From Actinomycetota bacterium (GTDB lineage: Bacteria > Actinomycetota > UBA4738 > HRBIN12): a DNA stretch of 64,000 bases. The translations under genes and the position numbers were made by a program. Below the pieces are notes generated by a model. That model did no database searches. It was not told the DNA's origin and saw only the letters and a program-made list of their open reading frames with translations. The number at the start of each line of letters is the position of its first letter. Position 1 is the stretch's first letter. This document shows, one piece after another, positions 3,103 through 49,967 of the stretch. The stretch covers positions 1,603 through 65,602 of the forward strand of contig VAXZ01000111.1 in NCBI GenBank assembly GCA_005885035.1. The letters run 5' to 3'.

Positions 3103-4324
3103 GACACGACCGAACGGGGATCGGTCGCTCGACGTGTTGATCGTGTCCCAGCCCGCCGACTACGGTGTCGCGATCTACGTCCGGGAGCTGGCCCGATCGG
3201 CCGTGGAGGCCGGGCACGATGTGACCGTGATCAGCCCCCCGGAGTCGCGAGGGCCCTTGGCCAGCTGGGTCACGAGCGTCGGAGCCCGGCATCACACACT
3301 CGACATGGCCCGCAGGCCCGCCCTCCGTGATCCCTTCGACGTCTTGACCCTCCGCCGTCTCGCGCGAGGGCGCGACGTCCTGCACGTGCATTCGTCCAAG
3401 GCGGCCGCGCTCGGGCGCGTCGCGGCAGCGACCCTGCCGCGACGAGCCCGACCCGCGGTCGTGATGACTCCCCACTACTGGTCGTGGCTCGTCGGCGGGC
3501 GGCTTGAGGCCCTCTACCGGTGGATCGAGCGGCTGCTTGCTCGCCGCTGCGACGTGATCGTCGCCGTCTCCGAACGGGAAGAGGTGGAAGGTCGCTCGGT
3601 GCTGGGCGCGGACGCCCGACTGCTGTTGATACCGAACGGCGTCGATCGAGCACACTTCTCCCCTGAGGGACCGTCTGCGGAACGAGACGTCGGCCATCCC
3701 CTGATCGCCTGCGTGGGAAGGCTGAGCGAGCAGAAGGGTCAGGACGTCGCGATCCGCGCGCTCGCGCTGCTGAGCGATCGCACGTCGAGGCTCCGCCTCG
3801 TCGGGGGGGAGAGCACCCCGGGGCACCGCAGGCAGTTGGAGGAGCTCGCCAACTCGCTCGGCGTCGCGGAGCGGATCGAGTGGCGCGGTCCCGTGGACGA
3901 CACCGCCCCCGAGTACCGCGCCGCCGACGTGGTCATCGCGCCGTCCCGGTGGGAAGGCATGTCGCTCGCGTCGCTGGAGGCATTGTCGTGCGGTTCGGCG
4001 ATGGTCGCCACCGATGTGTCCGGGAGCGAAGCCCTCGGGTCCGCAGCCGTGATCGTGCCTCGAGACGATCCCGATGGGCTGGCCGGAGCCATCGACAGGC
4101 TCCTTCGCGATCCGGAGAAGCGGCGAGCGCTCGGGCTTGCGGCGAGAGCCCAGAGCCGGCCGTTCGACGTGTCCGCGACGATGCGTCGGAACCTCGATCT
4201 GTGGACCGAGCTCGTGCATGGAGGAGCCTGGCAAAGGAGTCAGGAGGACGGCTCGGGAGCGGTCGGGTCGGCCGTGCCCGGGACGCCTTCCGCTGCAACA
4301 GGGACGTGGACGACGGATGCGTGA
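3086..4324 (+). CDS. Glycosyltransferase family 4
   Basis: SRWEGMSLASLEALSCGSAMVATDVSGS and GRLSEQKG motifs. 412 aa. Overlaps the flanking genes. Confidence 0.85.
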   Translation: MPRRSRTRPNGDRSLDVLIVSQPADYGVAIYVRELARSAVEAGHDVTVISPPESRGPLASWVTSVGARHHTLDMARRPALRDPFDVLTLRRLARGRDVLHVHSSKAAALGRVAAATLPRRARPAVVMTPHYWSWLVGGRLEALYRWIERLLARRCDVIVAVSEREEVEGRSVLGADARLLLIPNGVDRAHFSPEGPSAERDVGHPLIACVGRLSEQKGQDVAIRALALLSDRTSRLRLVGGESTPGHRRQLEELANSLGVAERIEWRGPVDDTAPEYRAADVVIAPSRWEGMSLASLEALSCGSAMVATDVSGSEALGSAAVIVPRDDPDGLAGAIDRLLRDPEKRRALGLAARAQSRPFDVSATMRRNLDLWTELVHGGAWQRSQEDGSGAVGSAVPGTPSAATGTWTTDA

Positions 4325-5138
4325 CGCCTCCGACGACACGCTCCCGCCCGTCCGGTACGTGAGCATGCCCGGGAGCCCCTACACGGGTTCCACACTCTTG
4401 GGGATGCTGATGGCCAATCACCCTGCTTGTACCTCGATCGGCGCGGCGACGGGTCTCACGGCCAAGGTGGATCTGGACACCTACCTGTGCTCGTGCGGCC
4501 TGCTGTTCACCGAGTGCTGCTTCTGGCATCGCATCGCCCGACGGACGGAGGAGCTCGGGTATCCGGTGACCGTGTTCAAGACGAACTTCTGGAACACACA
4601 TGTCCGGGTCTCGGGACGCCGATGGCTCAACGGGGTCGTCGTGAGCTCGCTCGGGAACCCCTCGTTGACGGCCATCCGCGACGCGACGGTCGGCAGGACC
4701 CCTCCGGTTCGCCGGCGCGTCTCGGAGGCGAGGGCAACCACGTGGAGCCTGGCTCGGTCGATCCTGGAGGAGACGGGCAGGAGCGTGTTCGTGGACACGG
4801 CGCGTGATCATCAACGTCCGCGCTACCTCGCAGGTGCACCTGGCCTGCGGCTCAAGGTCATCCATCTGGTCCGCGATCCGCGCGGCAACGTCGCCAGCAT
4901 CATGAAGCACACCGGCGTCGACGTCGGGCACGCGGCTCGCCAGTGGCGCCACTACAACGTGGAGGCCGATCGCGTCGGTCGCTCGTTCCCACGCGGAGCG
5001 TGGATGCGGCTGCATTACGAGGAGCTGTGCTCGCAACCGCAAGAGACACTGGAGCGCGTCGCGATGTTCATCGGGGTGGAGCCCATCCCGGTGTCCGATC
5101 ACCTGCAGCCATCCGAGCATCATGTGATCGGCAACTGA
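4317..5138 (+). CDS. Sulfotransferase (P-loop fold)
   Basis: ATG at 4317 (aa 82 of ORF 4074..5138), overlapping the GT stop by 8 nt. SMPGSPYTGSTLLG (PSB-like loop) and KVIHLVRDPRGNVAS (3'-PB-like RDPR). Confidence 0.7.
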   Translation: MRDASDDTLPPVRYVSMPGSPYTGSTLLGMLMANHPACTSIGAATGLTAKVDLDTYLCSCGLLFTECCFWHRIARRTEELGYPVTVFKTNFWNTHVRVSGRRWLNGVVVSSLGNPSLTAIRDATVGRTPPVRRRVSEARATTWSLARSILEETGRSVFVDTARDHQRPRYLAGAPGLRLKVIHLVRDPRGNVASIMKHTGVDVGHAARQWRHYNVEADRVGRSFPRGAWMRLHYEELCSQPQETLERVAMFIGVEPIPVSDHLQPSEHHVIGN

Positions 5139-12095: not shown

Positions 12096-12392
12096 GACCG
12101 CGGGGTAGCGTTCCGCGACCCACCCGAGGACGAAGAACGTCGATCGGACCCGGGCGGCTGCAAGGATATCCAGGAGCTCGTGAACGTTCGGTTCGAGCCT
12201 CGACTCCAGCCGGTCCCAATCATGCGTTGGCAGGCTCGCCCGGACGTTCTCGGCGTGGAACCAGTCCTAGCCTAGGGGACCCCTGGTTCGATGCCACCCG
12301 CGTCCACCATGCTCGAGTTCAAGCCGATGGACGGGGGGTTCAAGGGCGAAACGTGGCCTGCTGACCTGCCCCGCGAGATCGCGTACGTCGTC

Positions 12393-12568: not shown

Positions 12569-13868
12569 ATGATCGTGTCACCGCGGAAGCCGCTCGAATG
12601 GGTGGTTGTCTTCTCATTGCTCGTGGCCGCAACCGTCCTGGTTCCCGTCACCGCCGAGGCCTCCAGCAACTGCGGCACCTCGAGCGGCCACAACCTTTGC
12701 CTCTCGGCTGCTGACACCCTGACCGGTGAACAGACCGTCACCGTCACGAACTCGCCCAACAACGGCGTCGTGTTCGCGACGTGGGTCCCGTCGGGCGGGA
12801 AAGCCCTGCAACTCATAGAGATCGATGCGCCCTCCCCGGCCACGACCGACTATTCCTTCGTGTGGCCGACCCAGAAATACCTGGACGGCTCGGGCACCCT
12901 GTCCCTACAGGCAGGTTCGATCGGCTCGGCGGCCGTCATGATCGCCGTCACCCTGAGCAATGGCAACACAACGGACTTCCAACACAGCCCGAAGGACTGG
13001 ATGAACTCCCTACCCGGATCGTGGACGGGGCCGGAGGATCCGACGATCCTCGCGGTCGGGGACGGCCCGTCGAACGAGGTGACGTCCAACGCCGTCGCCA
13101 GCCGGATCGCCGCACTCGATCCACCGTTGTTCCTGTTCCTCGGCGATGTCTATGAGACGGGCACGTTTACAGAGTTCCGGAACCATTACGGGGCTTCTGA
13201 GCTCGACACGCCTGGGGCGGGGACGCTCTGGGGAGAGACCGCCGACATCACGCAGCCCACCCTCGGGAATCACGAGAAGCCCAACTCAGCGGCCTTCATC
13301 GACTACTGGCACGGGAGGCCGCTCTTCACGAGCTTCACGTTCGGCGGGACCCTGTTCCTTGACATGAACTCAAGCGCGTCGATGAGCGCGACCAGCGCGC
13401 AGTACCAGTTCGTCAAGAGCGCGGTCACCAACCCTTCAGCCCCGAACTGCATCGTCGCCTTCTGGCATATCCCCGCCGTTGTAACGAACACGTCGGTGAC
13501 GGCCGGTCAGACAGCCATGTGGGCGCTGCTCGCGAACAACGGCGTCGATCTACTGGTGACCGGGCACCAGCACAAGATGGTGGAGTTCAACCCGCTCGAC
13601 GCCGATCTCAACCCCACGCCGCAGGCCCACCTGGTGCAGCTGGTCTCCGGAGCGGGGGGGCACAAGCTCGCCGGGCCGACCTCCGTCGGAGCACGCGTCG
13701 CGTGGTCGAAGGGGGGCACGGCGGGATTGCTCTCGCTGTCGCTCGCCGGAGCAGCCGGGGGGAACGCTGCAACGAGTATCGGCTGGCAGTTCCAGACCGT
13801 AAGCGGGAGCGATCTCCATGATGGATCGGTCGACTGTGGCTCCGTCGCGAACCACGCCCCGGTCGTGA
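12569..13868 (+). CDS. Secreted calcineurin-like metallophosphoesterase (3' end frameshifted)
   Basis: ATG at 12569 (aa 57 of ORF 12401..14590) followed by a signal peptide MIVSPRKPLEWVVVFSLLVAATVLVPVTAEA. Phosphoesterase motifs LFLGDVYETG, TLGNHE and VTGHQHK. The rest of the ORF track's 729-aa read-through is low-complexity Arg/Gly out-of-frame sequence. Confidence 0.7.
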
Positions 13869-13892
13869 ACTCCGAGCTCCCCCACGACGTCC

Positions 13893-19662: not shown

Positions 19663-20061
19663 TCAGACGATCGGTTTCTCGACGCCGGCTCGAGCGATCC
19701 CGGACACGAGCCCCGCGACGAGCACGATGTTGGTGACGGCGAAGATCCACCAGAACCACGCTGCCGACCCAGCCGGCACCGAGACCATCGCGTGCAGCGT
19801 GGTCACGAGCGCCGTCAGGCCCGACTCGAGGACGAACGCCCACGACCACCACCACGCGTCGTCCAGCCGGCGCGAGATCATCAGCGCCAGCGCCGCCGAG
19901 GACAGGCCGGCGATGCCGCAGACCCGAACGTACGTGTAGTCGGGGTAGGGCACCTGATCGAACCAGGTGACCAGGATCCATCGCGGGCTAACCGCGATCG
20001 CGGTTCCGCACACTCCCCAGACGGCAGCGAACAGCAGAAGCGCGCGTCGCAGGAACGCCAT
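19663..20061 (-). CDS. Small integral membrane protein (132 aa), first gene of the ABC-2 exporter operon
   Basis: MAFLRRALLLFAAVWG...; 4 predicted TM segments. The ORF track's 595-aa extension is antisense to the AlkP gene. Confidence 0.5.
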   Translation of the reverse strand: MAFLRRALLLFAAVWGVCGTAIAVSPRWILVTWFDQVPYPDYTYVRVCGIAGLSSAALALMISRRLDDAWWWSWAFVLESGLTALVTTLHAMVSVPAGSAAWFWWIFAVTNIVLVAGLVSGIARAGVEKPIV

Positions 20062-20199: not shown

Positions 20200-21612
20200 A
20201 TGCAGGACGGCCCCAGGGTCGCAGTGATCGGACTCGACTGCGTAACCCCCACGCTCCTGTTCGACGATCTTCGTTCCGAGGTCCCCACCATCGCGAAGCT
20301 GATGGACAACGGCATGTACGGCGACCTCGCCAGCATCACCCCTCCGATCACCGTGCCCGCCTGGGCGTGCGGGCTGACGGGTCAGACCCCTGGGCAGCTC
20401 GGCATCTACGGGTTCCGCAATCGCAAGGACGTCACCTACGACGGACTCTCGATCGTCCATTCCGGCTCCGTGAAGGAGCCCGCCGTCTGGGACGCGTTGG
20501 GTGCGAGCGGCATGCGTTCGCTCCTGATCGGGGTGCCGCCCTCGTATCCACCGCCCGCCGACTTCCCCGGTTGGCGCGTCGGGTGCTTCCTCACGCCTCC
20601 CTCGGCGGACCGCTACGCCTATCCGCAGGATCTCCAGGCCGAGATCGAAGAGGAGCTCGGGGGGAAGGGCCAGTACATCTTCGACATCCCGAACTTCCGG
20701 GAGGCCGGCTTCGACGTCACGTTGGATCAGGTGTTCAAGATGACCGAGCGGCGATTCCGGGTGGGTCGACGGCTGATCCAGAACAAGCCTTGGGACTTCT
20801 TCATGCTCTGCGACATCGCGCCGGACCGCCTGCATCACGTCTTCTGGCAGTACGTGGATCCGGCGCACCCGCGACACGAACCCGGCAACCGGTACGAGGG
20901 AGTGTTCCACGACTACTACCGCTTCTTGGATCGCGAGCTGGCATCGCTCGTCGAGCTGATCCCCGAGGACGCGGTGACGATCGTGATGTCCGATCACGGC
21001 GCCCGCCCCATGATGGGCGGTCTGTGCTTCAACGACTGGTTGATCCAAGAGGGATACCTCGTGCTCGACGAGCCCGTCGACGGAGGCCCGGTTCCCTTCA
21101 AGGATGTCTCGGTCGATTGGTCCCGGACCGCGGCGTGGGGCGACGGCGGCTATTACGGGCGGTTGTTCCTCAACGTCAAGGGGCGCGAGACGCAGGGTGT
21201 CGTCGACCCCTCGCGCTACGAAGCGACTCGAGACGAGCTGATCCAGAAGCTCGAAGCTGCTCCCGGACCGGACGGCACGCCGCTCGGGACGAGGGTCCTC
21301 AAGCCGCAGGACGTCTATCCCGAGGTTCGGGGTGTCGCCCCCGACCTCCTCGTCTATTTCGGCGACCTGTCGTGGCGCTCCGTGGGCTCGATCGGCAACC
21401 CGAGCATGTTCACGTACGAGAACGACACCGGCCCCGACGGGGCCAACCATGACCGGGACGGCGTCTTCATCATGAACGGTGCTCCCCGCCAGCCCACCGG
21501 CAAGATCGAGGGACTCCGCCTCGTCGACGTGGGTCCGACCATCCTCTCCCTCTACGACATCGACGCGTCCCGGGCGCTGCCCGCGGCTGTCGGAAGGAGC
21601 TTCCTCGCATGA
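20200..21612 (+). CDS. Alkaline-phosphatase superfamily: type I phosphodiesterase/nucleotide pyrophosphatase family protein
   Basis: ATG at 20200 (aa 137 of the ORF). PAWACGLTG block resembles the NPP catalytic Thr loop. 470 aa. Stop overlaps the cysC start. Confidence 0.75.
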   Translation: MQDGPRVAVIGLDCVTPTLLFDDLRSEVPTIAKLMDNGMYGDLASITPPITVPAWACGLTGQTPGQLGIYGFRNRKDVTYDGLSIVHSGSVKEPAVWDALGASGMRSLLIGVPPSYPPPADFPGWRVGCFLTPPSADRYAYPQDLQAEIEEELGGKGQYIFDIPNFREAGFDVTLDQVFKMTERRFRVGRRLIQNKPWDFFMLCDIAPDRLHHVFWQYVDPAHPRHEPGNRYEGVFHDYYRFLDRELASLVELIPEDAVTIVMSDHGARPMMGGLCFNDWLIQEGYLVLDEPVDGGPVPFKDVSVDWSRTAAWGDGGYYGRLFLNVKGRETQGVVDPSRYEATRDELIQKLEAAPGPDGTPLGTRVLKPQDVYPEVRGVAPDLLVYFGDLSWRSVGSIGNPSMFTYENDTGPDGANHDRDGVFIMNGAPRQPTGKIEGLRLVDVGPTILSLYDIDASRALPAAVGRSFLA

Positions 21613-22892: not shown

Positions 22893-23943
22893 ATGGAATT
22901 CGAGATCGGCATCGGCAAGACGGCGCGTCGGGCCTACGGGTTCGACGAGGTCGCCATCGTTCCGTCGCGAAGGACCCGCGACCCCGAGGACGTCAGCATC
23001 GCGTGGGAGATCGACGCGTACACCTTCGGTCTGCCGATGATGACCGCGGCGATACGACGAGATCGCGGGGCTCCCGGACGATAAGGCCACCCGCCGGATG
23101 CAGGAGCTCTACGCCGAGCCGATCCGCGAGGACCTGATCGGTCGTCGCATCCAGGAGATCAAGGCCGGCGGCGTGGTCGCCTGCGCCTCGCTCACCCCGC
23201 AGCGGGTGGAGCGCTACGCGAAGCTGGTCCTCGAGGCGGAGCTCGACATCCTCGTGATCCAGGGGACGGTCGTTTCGGGCGAGCACGTCTCCAGTCAGCA
23301 TGAGCCGCTCAACCTCAAGGAGTTCGTCCCGTCGTTCGACATCCCCGTGATCGTCGGAGGGTGCGCGTCGTATGCGACCGCGCTGCACCTGATGAGGACC
23401 GGAGCGGTCGGCGTCCTCGTGGGTGTCGGACCGGGGAACGCGTGCACGAGTCGAGGGGTCCTCGGGGTCGGCGTGCCGCAAGCGACGGCGATCGCCGACG
23501 CGGCCGCAGCTCGGCGGGAGCACCAGCACGAGACCGGGCGCTACTGCCACGTGATCGCGGACGGAGGCATGCGCACCGGCGGCGACATCGCGAAGGCGAT
23601 CGCCTGCGGAGCGGACGCGGTGATGATCGGTTCCCCGCTCACACGGTCCCTCGAGGCTCCGGGTCGCGGTTACCACTGGGGGATGGCGACGTTCCATCCG
23701 ACCCTGCCTCGTGGCGCCCGCGTCAAGACGCAGCAGGTGGCGTCGCTCCGGGAGATCCTGGTGGGGCCGGCGCACGAGAACGACGGCACCTTCAACCTCT
23801 TCGGCGCGCTCGCGACCTCGATGGCCACCACCGGCTACGAGACGATCAAGGAGTTCCAGAAAGCCGAGCTGGTGATCGCCCCGGCGATCAAGACCGAGGG
23901 CAAGACGTATCAGACCCAGCAACGGGTGGGGATGGGCCACTAG
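22893..23943 (+). CDS. guaB3: IMP dehydrogenase family protein GuaB3, disrupted by a frameshift and an internal deletion near 23041..23100
   Basis: N-terminal fragment 22893..23084 (MEFEIGIGKTARRAY..IVPSRRTRD..DAYTFGLPMM). The rest runs 23098..23943 in another frame (LVIQGTVVSGEHV..GGCASYATALHLMRTGAVG..IADGGMRTGGDIAKAIACGADAVM). About 30 aa expected between the two pieces is absent. Confidence 0.7.
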
Positions 23944-23946
23944 TCG

Positions 23947-25378
23947 ATGCCCGAACAGCCCCGCCCGGTCCTCGTCGTCGACCTGGGGGCGCAGTACGCA
24001 CAACTGATCGCCCGTCGGGTCCGGGAAGCGCACGTCTACTCCGAGATCGTTCCCCACGATCTGGATGCGAAGGGCTTCGCCGCGAAGCGTCCAGCCGGCA
24101 TCATCCTGTCCGGCGGCCCGGCGAGCGTCTACGAGCCGGGAGCACCCCAGCTCGACCCGCACATCTTCGACCTGGGCGTGCCGGTCCTCGGCATCTGCTA
24201 CGGCCACCAGCTGATGGCGCGGGCGTTGGGCGGGGAGGTCGCGGCGACCGGGCAGCGGGAATACGGTGCGACCGTCCTGCACGTGTCGCAGCCGACCCTG
24301 CTGCTGCGCGACCTCCCTGCGACCGACACGGTCTGGATGTCCCACGGCGACGCCGTCACGCGGTCTCCGGAGGGGTTCCGCGTCACGGCCTCCACCGAGC
24401 AGATCGCGATCGCAGCGATGGAAGATCCCGACCGGGCTTTGTTCGCCGTGCAGTTCCACCCCGAGGTGTCACACACGCCGAACGGGCAGGCGGTCATGAA
24501 GCGGTTCCTGGTGGATGGGTGCGGGCTGCTCCCGGATTGGACGCCGACCAACATCATCGAGGACGCGGTCGAGCGGATCCGCGCCACCGTCGGCGACGCG
24601 AAGGTCTACTGCGCCCTGTCCGGTGGGGTGGATTCGAGCGTCGCGGCGCTCTTGGTGCACCGGGCCGTCGGCGGTCAACTGACCTGCGTGTTCGTGGACA
24701 CCGGGCTCCTGCGTGCTGGCGAGCCCGAGCAGGTCGAAGAGACCTTCGCTCGGCATCTTCACGTGCCGTTCGTCCACGTGAAAGCCGGCGACGACTTCTT
24801 CGCCAGCCTCGCCGGCGTGACGGACCCGGAGGCGAAACGCCGGATCATCGGTGCTGGATTCGTCCACGCCTTCGAGGAGGCCGCCGGGCCGCACACCGAT
24901 CAGCGCTTCCTGGTGCAGGGCACGCTCTATCCGGACGTGATCGAGAGCGGCTCGAAGACGGGAGCGACGATCAAGACCCACCACAACGTCGGTGGCTTGC
25001 CCGACCAGATCGATTTCGACGGCATCGTCGAACCCCTCCGCGACCTGTTCAAGGACGAGGTCCGCAAGGTCGGAGAGGAGCTGGGGATGCCGGAGGAGAT
25101 CGTTCAACGGCAACCGTTCCCCGGGCCGGGCCTGGCCGTGCGGATCGTGGGGGAGGTGACGCCCGAACGAGCGGAGAAGGTGCGGGCCGCCGATGCGATC
25201 GTCCGCGACGAGATCCGTCGTGCCGGCCTCGAACGCGAGACCTGGCAAGCCTTCTGCGTCCTCCTCGGAGATGTCCATGCGGTCGGCGTGATGGGTGATC
25301 GTTCGCGAGGTTCCGGGCGTGAACCGCGTGGCGTACGACATCACCTCCAAGCCGCCGGGCACGATCGAATGGGAGTAG
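23947..25378 (+). CDS. guaA: GMP synthase (glutamine-hydrolysing), C-terminus frameshifted with a ~110-nt internal deletion
   Basis: GATase and ATP-PPase domains intact (SGGVDSSV). In-frame sequence matches the guaA consensus up to ...VGVMGD (D at 25297). The canonical terminus [26 protein letters not shown] follows immediately in the +1 frame and ends at 25378. Confidence 0.8.
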
Positions 25379-25416
25379 GGCCGGCCGACATCGCCGGTGA
25401 TGCCTTCCAGGACCTG

Positions 25417-25866
25417 ATGCCGTTCAACCACTGCTGGGGCTGCGGTGCCGACAACCCGGCCGGTCTCCGGCTCAAGAGCAGGTGGTCAGCGGACGATCCC
25501 GAGGTCGCGATCGCGACGTTCCGTCCGCGCCCCGAGCACATGGCGGGCCCGCGGCACGTCCTCAACGGGGGCATCATCGCCACGATCCTCGACTGCCACG
25601 GCGTGTGCACCTCTGTGGCGGACGCGTATCGACGGGAGGGACGAGCGATCGGTCGTGGCGACACGATCTGGTTCGCGACCGGCTCGCTCGACGTCAGGTT
25701 TCTGGCGCCGGTCCCGGTCGATGCCGCTGTCGAGCTTCGAGCCAGGGTCGTCGAGCACAGGGAGCGGAAGACGGGCCTCGACTGCACGCTCGCGGCGGCC
25801 GACGACATCTGCGCCCGGGCGGCCGTGACGGCCGTCCGCGTGCCGCCGTCCTGGCTCCAGGCCTGA
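25417..25866 (+). CDS. Hotdog-fold (PaaI/YbgC-like) thioesterase
   Basis: [19 protein letters not shown]...; 149 aa. Fused to guaA in the ORF track only through out-of-frame read-through. Confidence 0.7.
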
Positions 25867-25872
25867 GACGGT

Positions 25873-25898
25873 GGGGCCGCTCCTTCCGGAGCGGCCCC
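25873..25898 (+). terminator. Bidirectional stem-loop terminator
   Basis: GGGGCCGCTCC-TTCC-GGAGCGGCCCC, perfect 11-bp stem, 7 nt after the thioesterase stop and facing the convergent sortase gene. Confidence 0.6.
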
Positions 25899-26040
25899 AT
25901 CCTTCCCACGTCCCGCGTCAGGGAAGCGTGTTCGCCTCGTCAAGCGCGGCGAGGAACGACCCATCGGGGAACGACTTCGGCGTCTCGGCCAACGAGCCCT
26001 CCGGAGGCGACGTCGGCTGAGCGTAGCCTCCCGTCCGCCC

Positions 26041-26727
26041 TCAGGTCGGCGAGCGGGTGAGATCCGCCTCCACGATCAGTCGCTGCGAGCTGGCGTACTT
26101 CGGATTGCAGGTGGTGAGGACCAGCGTGGGCCGGCTGGTCTGTCGCAGGACGACGCCCGCCGTCGCTTCGGGCAGGACGAAGTTCCTCGTGACGGCGTAC
26201 GTGTACGTGCCGAACCCGGTGAGCAGCTGGATCGTGTCGCCCGGCCGGACCTGATCCAGGTTGAAGAACGGGTGCAGGTAGGTCGTGCGGTGCCCCGCGA
26301 TGCCGACGCGACCCATCCCGTCCCACGGGTCCGCGGTGTCGACGTAATGCCCGGGCCCGGACTTCAGCGATGTGTAGTCGGTGCCCTGCACGACCACCAT
26401 GTCCAGGCCGATCCGGGGGATCCTGATCACCCCGTAGGCGCTTCCGGGGATGACAGGCGATCCGGGCCGCGGGCCCTCGGAGGGCGGCCGGGGGTTCGCG
26501 ATCTGCCCTTCGATCGCCGGTCGCAAGGCATCCTGTGCCCGCTGCGTCTGCAGGCCGGTTCCCCAGAGGAGCCAGGCGACGTACCCGGCGAAGAACGCCG
26601 CGCCCATCAGGCAGAGCAGCCCGAACCACCGGACCGGTGTCCGCCAATCCAGACGGCGTCGCGCGGGGACGCCGGTTACCAGGGCGCTCACGGCATGAAC
26701 CGTACCGTGGGCCATCCGGTCCAACAT
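26041..26727 (-). CDS. Class E sortase
   Basis: TLVLTTC catalytic Cys motif, N-terminal TM anchor, HRTTYLHPF. Start chosen at M57 of the ORF (MLDRMAHG). Confidence 0.85.
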   Translation of the reverse strand: MLDRMAHGTVHAVSALVTGVPARRRLDWRTPVRWFGLLCLMGAAFFAGYVAWLLWGTGLQTQRAQDALRPAIEGQIANPRPPSEGPRPGSPVIPGSAYGVIRIPRIGLDMVVVQGTDYTSLKSGPGHYVDTADPWDGMGRVGIAGHRTTYLHPFFNLDQVRPGDTIQLLTGFGTYTYAVTRNFVLPEATAGVVLRQTSRPTLVLTTCNPKYASSQRLIVEADLTRSPT

Positions 26728-32766: not shown

Positions 32767-34288
32767 ATGCGGAAGCAACGTTCGACGCGCCTGTTCGCAG
32801 CCGCCGCACTTGCCTCATTGGTCATCACTGCGCTGGTTGGGAACACCGCTTCGGCCCACAAGATCCCGCGATGGGTCAAGCACGTACAGCATTGGAACGG
32901 CGGGATCTCCAACGGTGTGCGCGAGCGCGCTGCGCAGGCGTCGGGCGGCCTCGTGATCCCCCAGACCCTCTCCCGGCCTGTCGTGAAGATCGGATCGCCG
33001 GCTCTCGACAACGTGCAGATGAACGGTGACAGCGATCCGCCGCTCCCGCAGGACGAGCCGTCGATCGCCGAGAGCCTCGACGACCCGATGAACGCCGTGG
33101 CGGCATCCAACGACTACACCGGTGACGGGTTCTGGATCGGGTCCACGACGGATGGCGGGCAGACCTGGGCGAGCCAGTGGAAGGACCCGAAGTTCAGCTT
33201 CGACGGCGGACGATGCTTCGCGTCGGATCCCTCCGTGGCGTACAGCCTCCGCGACCACGCCTTCTACCTCTCGACCCTCTGCTACTTCTCCACGACGCCG
33301 GCATCGGAGATCCAGGTATGGAAGTCGGTCGATGGTGGGGGAACGTGGAGCTCGTCGCAGCAGCCGGCGCTCGTGGTCACGAATCACGCGACGGACGGGT
33401 CGATCGACGCCTCCGTCTTCTACGACAAGGAGCTGATGGCGGTCGACAACACGCCCGGCAGTCCGTACTTCGGACGGCTCTACGTCACGTATACGAAGTT
33501 CCACATGACGGGCGGCTCGTACGCACGGAGCGACTACTGCCCGGTGCAGGCGGCGTACACGGACGCGATCCCGACGGCGGATCCGGCCGCGTCGTCGTGG
33601 GGTCACACGGCGATCGTCCCGGATGCGCCTGGCGCCAAGGGCACGGGATCGTCCGCGAACCAGTTCTCCACGCCGCTCGTCGACGATCAGGGAGCGCTCG
33701 ACGTCGCGTTCGTGCAGGAGGACTGCAACACGAGCATCGATCACGCGTTGTACTTCGCCCGCTCGGACACCGGCGGCGCGTCCTTCGGCGGGATCGTTCG
33801 CGTGGATCGGCCCGGGTGGTTCTCGGACAACCCGAACGCGAACGACAACCTTCCCGGCAAGTGCGGACATCTCGTTGCAATCGTCCGACGACTTCGGCGC
33901 CACGTGGACCGCCCCGAGGACGATCAGCGTGAGATCGAACGGCAAGGCGGCTCCACGTGATCAGTTCTTCCCGGCGATCGGGGTCGACCCGGACGGCGTA
34001 TGGTTCGCGATCTGGCAGGACACGCGTCTGGACCCTGCGAACCATCTGATCTCGACGTTCCAGGGTGAGTCGTCCAACGGCGGACAGACGTGGACCAACC
34101 ATCTGATCTCGACGGCGTCGTTCGATCCGCGGAAGTCATTCTTCACGTGTGGGTGCTTCATCGGTGACTACAACCAGATCGCGGTGTCCTCCGAGGTAGT
34201 GCTCCCGGCATGGACCGACGGCAGGGACTCGCCACCGAAGCCGGCCGGAGACTCGAACGTCTGGACCAACGTGGAGATCAGGTCCTAA
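32767..34288 (+). CDS. Secreted BNR/Asp-box repeat protein (sialidase/glycosyl-hydrolase-like beta-propeller), frameshifted near 33851..33880
   Basis: Signal peptide MRKQRSTRLFAAAALASLVITALVGNTASA. Asp-boxes STTDGGQTW, SVDGGGTWSS, SSDDFGATW and SSNGGQTW. N-terminal part is in the frame of ORF 32500..33960; C-terminal part is in the frame of ORF 33623..34288. Confidence 0.7.
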
Positions 34289-48336: not shown

Positions 48337-49967
48337 CAGTACTTGCGCTCCATCGGCACGTACGGGCCCATCTTCACGGGCTTGTACTCGATGCGGATCG
48401 ACCCGTCAGGCTCCCGATAGGCGAGCGTGTGCTTCAGCCAGTTGGCGTCATCGCGGAGCGGGTGGTCCTCGCGGAAGTGGGCGCCCCGGCTCTCGGTGCG
48501 CTCGAGCGCGCCCGCCACGAGCGCGTCCGCGCAGTCCAGCAGGTAGCCGAGCTCGACCGTCTCCATGAGATCGGTGTTGTACCGGGCTCCCTTGTCGGTG
48601 AGCTCCTTACGGATCTCGCCGGCGTTGTCACCCGTCGTGCGTCCCAAGATGCCGTCGAGGAGCTCCAGGGTCGGCCGCTCCGGATGCTCCCATGGGGTGG
48701 CAAGGTCGGTCTCGCGGACGAACCTGGCCGCGTCGTCTCCGGCTCGACGGCCGAACACCACGAGATCGAGCAGGGAGTTGGTACCCAGTCGATTGGCCCC
48801 GTGGACGGAGACGCACGCGCATTCACCGACCGCGTAGAGGCCCGGCACGACGTCCTCATCCGCGCCCACGACCACGCGGCCGTCGGTGTCGGTTGGGATC
48901 CCCCCCATCGCGTAGTGCGCCGTCGGTTGGATCGGGACCGGCTCCTCCAGGGGTTCCACCTTCAGGTAGATCCGGGCGAACTCCGTGATGTCGGGCAGCT
49001 TCTCCTCGACCACCTTGGGATCCAGGTGGGAGATGTCCAGGTACACCCAGTCGCCGTTGGGTCCGCCGCCGCGGCCCTCCTTGATCTCCTGGTAGATCGC
49101 CCGCGAGACCATGTCCCGTGGTGCCAGGTCCTTGATCGTGGGGGCGTATCGCTCCATGAACCGCTCGCCCTCGCTGTTCAGGACGATGCCGCCTTCGCCG
49201 CGCGCGGCCTCGGACAAGAGCACGCCCAACCGGGCGAGGCCGGTCGGATGGAACTGGAACATCTCCATGTCCTCGAGGGGGATGCCGCGTCGCCACACCA
49301 CGGCGGGTCCGTCACCGGTGAGCGCGTGGGCGTTGGAGGTGACGCGGAACATCCGCCCGTAGCCGCCCGTGGCGAACACCACCGCCTTGGCGCGGAAGAC
49401 GTGGAGCTCCCCGGTCGCGAGCTCGAAGGCGATGATGCCCACGGTGACGCCGGCGTCATCCCGCAGCAGATCCAGGCAGTAGAACTCGTTGAAGAATCGG
49501 ACGTCGCGTTTGACGCACTGCTGGTAGAGCGTCTGCAGGATCATATGCCCGGTCCGGTCCGCCGCGTAGCACGCTCTTTTGACCGGCGCCTCGCCGTGGT
49601 TGCGGGTATGTCCTCCGAACCGCCGCTGGTCGATCCGCCCGTCCGGGGTCCGGTTGAAGGGAAGACCCCAGCGCTCCAACTGATAGATCGCCTCGACGGC
49701 CTCTTCGGTCATCAGCAGTGCCGCCGGCTGATCGACGAGGTAGTCGCCACCCTTCACGGTGTCGAACGCGTGCCACTCCGGCGAGTCCTCCTCGACGTTG
49801 CCGAGCGCGGCGCAGACACCGCCCTGGGCGGCTCCGGTGTGGGAACGGGTCGGATACAACTTGGAGAGCACCGCGGTTCTGCACCGCTCGGAGAGCTCGA
49901 TCGCCGCGCGCAGCCCGCCACCGCCGCCGCCGACCACCACCGCGTCGTACGTATGGGTCGTGGTCAT
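48336..49967 (-). CDS. sdhA: Succinate dehydrogenase flavoprotein subunit
   Basis: ATG at 49967 (aa 116 of the ORF). YDAVVVGGGGGG, RSHTGAAQGG. 543 aa. Confidence 0.95.
   Translation of the reverse strand: MTTTHTYDAVVVGGGGGGLRAAIELSERCRTAVLSKLYPTRSHTGAAQGGVCAALGNVEEDSPEWHAFDTVKGGDYLVDQPAALLMTEEAVEAIYQLERWGLPFNRTPDGRIDQRRFGGHTRNHGEAPVKRACYAADRTGHMILQTLYQQCVKRDVRFFNEFYCLDLLRDDAGVTVGIIAFELATGELHVFRAKAVVFATGGYGRMFRVTSNAHALTGDGPAVVWRRGIPLEDMEMFQFHPTGLARLGVLLSEAARGEGGIVLNSEGERFMERYAPTIKDLAPRDMVSRAIYQEIKEGRGGGPNGDWVYLDISHLDPKVVEEKLPDITEFARIYLKVEPLEEPVPIQPTAHYAMGGIPTDTDGRVVVGADEDVVPGLYAVGECACVSVHGANRLGTNSLLDLVVFGRRAGDDAARFVRETDLATPWEHPERPTLELLDGILGRTTGDNAGEIRKELTDKGARYNTDLMETVELGYLLDCADALVAGALERTESRGAHFREDHPLRDDANWLKHTLAYREPDGSIRIEYKPVKMGPYVPMERKY

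Follow-up and report, generated by a model that had tools for sequence, protein, structure and literature searches.

The gene for GMP synthase (guaA) in this 64-kb window (i.e., the whole stretch of DNA that was analysed) is interrupted near its 3' end, and the gene in front of it, guaB3, is interrupted as well. The question raised by the locus is whether the organism itself carries these lesions or whether they arose during assembly of the record.

Reading frames and domains of the gua locus

Three-frame translation indicated that guaA, which starts at 23947, reads normally up to ...AVGVMGD, the final D being encoded by gat at 25297–25299. Past 25299, the same frame continues as out-of-family sequence that remains open up to a stop at 25864–25866 and is the frame of the downstream thioesterase-like gene. 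The true C-terminus of GuaA, which consists of 26 residues, was found one base out of frame and is followed by a stop at 25376–25378 (Table 1). Motifs expected of GuaA were evident in the translation, including GICYGHQ and FHPEV of the GATase domain, the P-loop SGGVDSS and the C-terminal KPPGTIEWE. In agreement with this reading, Pfam searches of the 5' portion identified GATase at residues 9–189 (E 5.5e-46) and an NAD_synthase-like match at residues 206–244. The GMP_synt_C domain was divided between two frames, with profile positions 1–31 of 92 in residues 421–452 of the long ORF (24.6 bits, under the cut-off of 27) and positions 68–92 of 92 in the 26-residue remnant (E 2.2e-11), which was 100% identical to residues 489–514 of protein P0002. 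Profile positions 32–67 were absent, and no complete domain was present in a single frame. Similarly, the recorded ORF scored 631.8 bits with NCBIfam model NF000848 (cut-off 400) but covered only positions 1–450 of 512. Judged by these domains, the recorded guaA ORF is not a functional member of the GuaA family.

The extent of the loss was determined by comparison with intact sequences. The closest proteins in a large protein collection were 514–517 aa long and had 37 aa between GVMGD and IVREV. The soil metagenome contig L082 matched the window with 99.83% identity over 1204 nt, and the alignment broke at 25299 and resumed at 25298 with 113 nt of the contig unmatched. Thus, the deletion and frameshift of about 110 nt near the C-terminus of guaA noted in the preliminary description, with about 37 residues absent from the C-terminal domain, were borne out by translation, Pfam and the L082 alignment, the missing segment being exactly 113 nt, or 37 codons plus the 2 nt that account for the frameshift. 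At the junction, the window reads GGGTGAT-CGTTCGCG, whereas relatives read GGGTGAT-GGCAGGACC...(113 nt)...CGCAACGCAT-CGTTCGCG, which can also be written GGGTGAT-GGCAGG...CAACGCAT-CGTTCGCG. The guaA breakpoint is ambiguous over the 2-nt AT, and no direct repeat was noted there. Insertion of the 113 nt from contig L088 into the window restored a 514-aa GuaA without mismatch to that of L088, and the repaired protein covered positions 1–512 of 512 of NF000848 with a score of 752.9 bits. Since the 37 missing residues have conserved counterparts in the GMP synthase structure PDB 5TW7, the difference is explained by loss from the window rather than insertion in relatives, and an intein- or intron-like insertion in the latter was ruled out on the same grounds.

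The earlier observation that guaB3 also carries a deletion on the 100-nt scale held as well. This gene is divided into a 5' piece at 22893–23053 and a 3' piece at 23054–23943 in a different frame, and its repair with 110 nt from L088 gave a protein of 386 aa with two differences from that of L088 and a match to TIGR01304 over positions 2–365 of 365 (556 bits). A search for a second, intact guaA, as suggested in the preliminary description, found none within the 64-kb window (tblastn).

The thioesterase-like protein of 165 aa encoded downstream of guaA was found as an exact copy on at least 23 contigs. Its sole Pfam record was a faint 4HBT match, and no match was obtained with NCBIfam. The ATG of this gene overlaps the guaA stop by 10 nt at 25369–25378 (ATGGGAGTAG), an arrangement that is kept in all relatives and that suggests translational coupling of the two genes. 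Following the deletion, the thioesterase-like gene stands in frame with the 5' portion of guaA. The resulting 639-aa ORF (23947–25866) is a spurious by-product of this change of frame.

The locus in independent assemblies of the same population

Contigs for comparison were gathered through exact copies of neighbouring proteins (DinB-like and thioesterase) and represented four kinds of assembly, namely N-containing IDBA-style scaffolds from several soil samples (CRIT18-1_SAMN089028xx), MEGAHIT k141 contigs, JGI contigs and a sibling NCBI MAG (GCA_005885585.1, contig VAWJ01000025.1). An intact left guaA boundary was present in 18 of the loci fetched, which came from at least 14 distinct contigs. 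Across guaA, these sequences were 99.8–100% identical to the window at the DNA level up to 25299, and the deletion junction appeared in none of the at least 14 distinct near-identical contigs when all fetched loci were checked. Both missing segments, i.e., those of guaA and guaB3, were present in all comparators; guaB3 was called as 386 aa, and guaA was called as 514 aa in most, with the exception of L084, L085/L114, L091 and L120, in which it was broken or shortened by N runs of their own. A 28-mer that spans the junction was absent from the JGI metagenome contigs in a scan of metagenome_contigs, and a scan of the same collection with the shared left flank identified one contig, which was intact.

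To the right of 25298, identity between the window and the comparators was 96–99.5% as opposed to 99.8–100% on the left. This contrast hints that the record may be a strain mosaic across the join. The variable region of the population near guaA begins only about 400 nt downstream. Strain variation was concentrated at 25700–26050, where the comparators differed at up to 31 columns per 50 nt; this stretch includes the 3' end of the thioesterase-like gene and the next intergenic region.

In a scan of genome_contigs, the best relatives were all uncultured Actinomycetota MAGs with no more than 79% amino-acid identity. Sample and MAG accessions of the near-identical comparators point to the Angelo grassland-soil study and, given identity of at least 99.9–100% to contigs of those samples and MAGs, we infer that the window belongs to the Angelo MAG series (PRJNA449266). 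As judged from these matches, the source is almost certainly an uncultured soil Actinomycetota population that was sampled repeatedly by the Angelo grassland-soil metagenomes and whose guaB3-guaA-thioesterase locus is ordinary and intact. Look-ups of exact products had no record of the window's 759-aa PcrA or of the fused 639-aa ORF.

Deletions along the window and in sibling records

Deletions in the window were called by direct comparison with near-identical contigs, which replaced a GC3 frame-plot/ORF filter that proved too noisy. This approach identified seven private, N-free deletions in 64 kb, or about one per 9 kb, which ranged from 99 to 121 nt (mean approximately 109 nt) and affected unrelated genes (Table 1). 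Five of the seven were not multiples of 3. The calls at 5136, 12268, 13866 and 48600 rest on one or two comparators each. Microhomology at the window junctions was 0–2 nt, which is the level expected by chance, and one junction contained unmatched bases; slippage-type direct repeats beyond this 0–2 nt were not seen at any window breakpoint. Only two sites, approximately 22880 and 26020–26040, had small indels that were peculiar to the window; both are intergenic, and the coding sequence was essentially free of small indels or other lesions.

Table 1. Positions of gua-locus features, window deletions and sibling-MAG deletions (window coordinates)
Feature	Position	Strand	Remarks
guaB3 (GuaB3-family IMP-dehydrogenase-related protein)	22893..23943	+	Split by 110-nt deletion at 23053
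guaA 5' portion, codons 1–451	23947..25299	+	GATase, ATP-pyrophosphatase and first ~31 residues of C-terminal dimerisation domain; free of other lesions
guaA deletion junction GAT/C, 113 nt absent	25297..25300	+	Breakpoint ambiguous over 2-nt AT
guaA 3' remnant, 26 aa + stop, shifted frame	25298..25378	+	Translation, Pfam, protein identity
Thioesterase-like gene, 165 aa	25369..25866	+	Separate gene in all intact relatives
Deletion of 110 nt, sulfotransferase gene, near 3' end	5136..5137		Compared with L102 and L101
Deletion of 99 nt, polysaccharide deacetylase gene (- strand), 5' end and upstream intergenic DNA	12268..12269		Compared with L101
Deletion of ~121 nt, gene for 704-aa hypothetical protein	13866..13871		Compared with L101; 5 unmatched bases (GAACT) at join
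Deletion of 110 nt, guaB3	23053	+	Compared with near-identical contigs including L088
Deletion of 113 nt, guaA	25299	+	Compared with L082, L088 and others
Deletion of 101 nt, BNR-repeat protein gene (540 aa), split	33861..33862		Deletion absent from 8 of 8 comparators (L093–L100)
In-frame deletion of 108 nt, succinate dehydrogenase flavoprotein gene (- strand)	48600..48601		Compared with L109 and L110
Sibling-MAG deletions, L116	17426–17498, 18562–18606		Contig comparison
Sibling-MAG deletion, L094	30134–30210		Contig comparison
Sibling-MAG deletions, L109	46859–46923, 55807–55866, 56495–56537		Contig comparison
Sibling-MAG deletions, L096/L110	36919–37005, 37597–37671, 46244–46314		Contig comparison

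Comparable deletions were noted in sibling MAG records of the species at other sites, where the window and other contigs are intact. Thus, GCA_005885585.1 had six private N-free deletions (76, 48, 78, 64, 58 and 47 nt) in 45.5 kb and GCA_005883145.1 had three (87, 67 and 69 nt) in 23 kb. Microhomology of 5–6 nt, above the level of chance, was associated with three of the deletions in GCA_005885585.1 and may be due to joining by overlap or to true slippage. Unscaffolded MEGAHIT, JGI and Logan contigs, on the other hand, showed one comparable event in approximately 112 kb aligned. This was in the JGI contig L111 (Ga0209376_1006924), which was without 130 nt at window positions 19764–19893, an intergenic segment upstream of a phosphodiesterase gene that all other comparators have, and the difference could be due to a natural indel polymorphism or to a further error of assembly.

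The distribution of N runs differed between kinds of record. Raw scaffolds contained 20 N runs in 129 kb (1.55 per 10 kb), whereas the MAG records and the window contained no N but 1.1–1.3 deletions per 10 kb. Four of the 16 MAG deletions overlapped an N run in a scaffold from another sample. At guaA, an N run of L085 begins 2 nt past the window breakpoint; at 5136, the first N of a 10-N run of L101 falls exactly on the breakpoint; and at 13866, a 10-N run of L101 lies inside the missing segment. At 12268, alignments of L102, L103 and L104 stopped 0–5 nt away (12263–12268), in the case of L102 at the end of the contig. Because N runs start or alignments stop at or within a few nt of the breakpoints in guaA, at 5136 and at 12268, these sites are positions at which assemblies of the population are prone to break. 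True gap lengths behind the N runs of raw scaffolds ranged from 23 to 306 nt, with 5 of 10 longer than 121 nt. The range of the MAG deletions was narrower (47–121 nt, none of the 16 longer than 121 nt), and each MAG had its own narrow size class.

Several irregularities were noted in individual scaffolds. At 4958–4967 of L101, a 10-N run occurs where no sequence is missing, and at 3739–3748 of L084 (window approximately 21002–21076), the sequence flanking a 10-N run is partly duplicated. The raw scaffold L090 has an N-free deletion of its own, of 41 nt at window positions 20544–20585, which shortens the phosphodiesterase gene from 470 to 347 aa. The presence of this deletion in a raw scaffold indicates that N-free deletions can precede MAG curation.

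Variation between strains was also considered in relation to the breakpoints. Contig L103 aligned (at least 90% identity) only from 5136, yet the contig itself reaches upstream past the deleted segment by about 290 nt (window approximately 4850–5136; L103 1–399), which suggests that the sulfotransferase gene bordering this breakpoint is strain-variable. Contig L104 also aligned only from 5136, but it begins within the deleted segment and is not informative in this respect. Strain polymorphism, which would suggest de Bruijn bubbles, was not supported as a trigger of the deletions, as SNPs were not clearly enriched in the deleted segments, where variable columns numbered 0–2 per 100 nt compared with 0.1–0.7 elsewhere, counts too few to claim enrichment.

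Origin of the deletions

The preliminary description had left a choice between mis-assembly and real decay of this gua copy. The seven private N-free gaps and the like sets in sibling MAGs favour the former, while decay is opposed by the intact state of the locus in every independent assembly of at least 99.8% identity. The 113-nt gap in guaA is thus one of seven similar private gaps, and for this reason an artefact is preferred to gene decay. On the strength of the contig comparisons, the gap is very probably a local assembly or gap-closure error in the MAG record and not a lesion in the organism. In addition to being private to one record, lesions of this kind recurred irrespective of gene function and were co-located with scaffold gaps or contig ends; the guaA lesion was not common to relatives or independent data, and no spectrum of small indels and nonsense mutations accompanied it. 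Contigs in the assembly behind the window would have ended at certain positions, and the ends would then have been joined without the intervening 100–120 nt or so and without N placeholders, perhaps because a scaffold gap was sized as zero, through automated "scaffolding error correction" or by removal of Ns. Faulty joins of this kind, occurring about once per 9 kb, would have fallen on both guaB3 and guaA by chance. Deletions in two adjacent genes of the GMP pathway had been regarded as striking, but this adjacency is better described as a coincidence, given that like deletions occur seven times across the window in unrelated genes.

Automated correction by ra2.py is said to be that of Brown et al. 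in 2015. According to the study of the Angelo MAGs, samples were assembled one by one with IDBA-UD at a maxk of 200, and the dereplicated bins were then corrected for scaffolding errors by an earlier described procedure prior to deposit under PRJNA449266 (PMC6784897). In the script of the same laboratory, ra2.py, scaffolding errors of local extent are either repaired or masked with Ns (PMC5220378). The same group reports that errors of local assembly and faulty N gaps are a prominent feature of IDBA-UD output (Chen et al., 2020, Genome Res, PMC7111523).

A variant of the assembly error is that Ns in a deposited scaffold were stripped at submission or preparation and the flanks concatenated, the missing bases never having been assembled. 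The density of N runs in raw scaffolds is close to that of deletions in MAG records, junction microhomology in the window is at the level of chance, and 10-N runs placed on zero-length gaps, as in L101 at 5136, would vanish without trace and raise no contradiction. Nevertheless, half of the raw-scaffold gaps measured exceed the longest MAG deletion, the size class is narrow and particular to each MAG, and some sibling-MAG junctions have a 5–6 nt overlap that suggests overlap-based joining. Plain N-stripping was therefore rejected as the full mechanism, its expected sizes being poorly matched to raw-scaffold gap lengths, and was kept as a sub-variant that is possible but rather doubtful.

Alternatively, a genuine and recent event may have removed the missing segments (113 nt in guaA, 110 nt in guaB3) from one clone, for example by end-joining, and left a GMP auxotroph or a strain that relies on guanine salvage. 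Actinomycetota commonly possess NHEJ, which gives 0–4 nt of microhomology, and the window junctions are of this type; the guaA junction is also clean and its sequence unambiguous, and the lower identity of the right flank is consistent with a record from a somewhat distinct strain. This explanation requires seven independent events of 99–121 nt in 64 kb, including events in housekeeping genes such as that of the succinate dehydrogenase flavoprotein, with almost no small indels in the same DNA and with no trace of the events in at least 14 independent contigs. Neither the like events at other sites in sibling MAGs, which unscaffolded contigs do not show, nor the position of several breakpoints 0–2 nt from N runs in scaffolds of other samples would be expected from it, and it is considered quite improbable. 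In its fullest form, an abundant soil actinobacterium would include a clone that is naturally mutant in both guaA and guaB3, depends on guanine salvage and expresses a truncated GuaA-thioesterase fusion, the seven uniform losses of about 110 nt being due to an unusual size-constrained process; so much is very improbable. The idea that the locus encodes a real GuaA-thioesterase protein or uses a programmed frameshift draws on the 639-aa ORF, which runs without a stop from guaA into the frame of the thioesterase-like gene. No frameshift could restore GuaA, since 37 residues conserved in all GMP synthases are absent. The 23-aa linker of the putative fusion derives from guaA read out of frame, the two genes are separate, with the 10-nt overlap, in all relatives, and the fused product was not on record in an exact-product look-up. 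Functional recoding or fusion thus has a negligible probability and, on the sequence comparisons, may be regarded as effectively refuted.

With assembly error as the favoured explanation, the finding has no biological consequence, as the guaB3-guaA locus of the organism itself is almost certainly normal. It does call for caution with this record and with no fewer than two sibling MAGs of the species, all of which carry silent, N-free deletions of approximately 50–120 nt at roughly one per 8–9 kb. Such deletions create false pseudogenes, false fusions (e.g., the 639-aa "GuaA-thioesterase") and false pathway gaps. Roughly one gene in ten would be wrong in a metabolic reconstruction, pseudogene count or prediction of auxotrophy that is based on such records.

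In comparison with known systems, the window gene resembles GMP synthase GuaA (NF000848; structures 5TW7 and 1GPM) over residues 1–451 and the last 26 residues. It differs from the family in that the recorded gene lacks model positions of approximately 451–487 and is frameshifted. The gene resembles the genuine pseudogenes of decaying bacterial genomes in being biosynthetic and in having an internal deletion and a frameshift. In natural decay, the indel spectrum is broad and consists mostly of small events, point nonsense mutations occur as well, and close relatives have the lesions in common. The window, by contrast, has a single narrow size class of deletion, no small lesions and only events that are private to the record. 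Local errors of IDBA-UD and their correction by ra2.py (PMC7111523, PMC5220378) offer another comparison. The errors reported there are unsupported sequence, wrong repeat numbers and spurious Ns, and no explicit description of N-free deletions of approximately 50–120 nt was found in that literature (PMC7111523, PMC5220378). The likeness lies in short lesions that are private to one record, in their recurrence every few kb in arbitrary genes and in their occurrence at sites where other assemblies of the population have N runs or contig ends, and the IDBA-UD type of error in which Ns are inserted despite overlap was itself seen here in the raw scaffolds L101 (at 5136) and L084.
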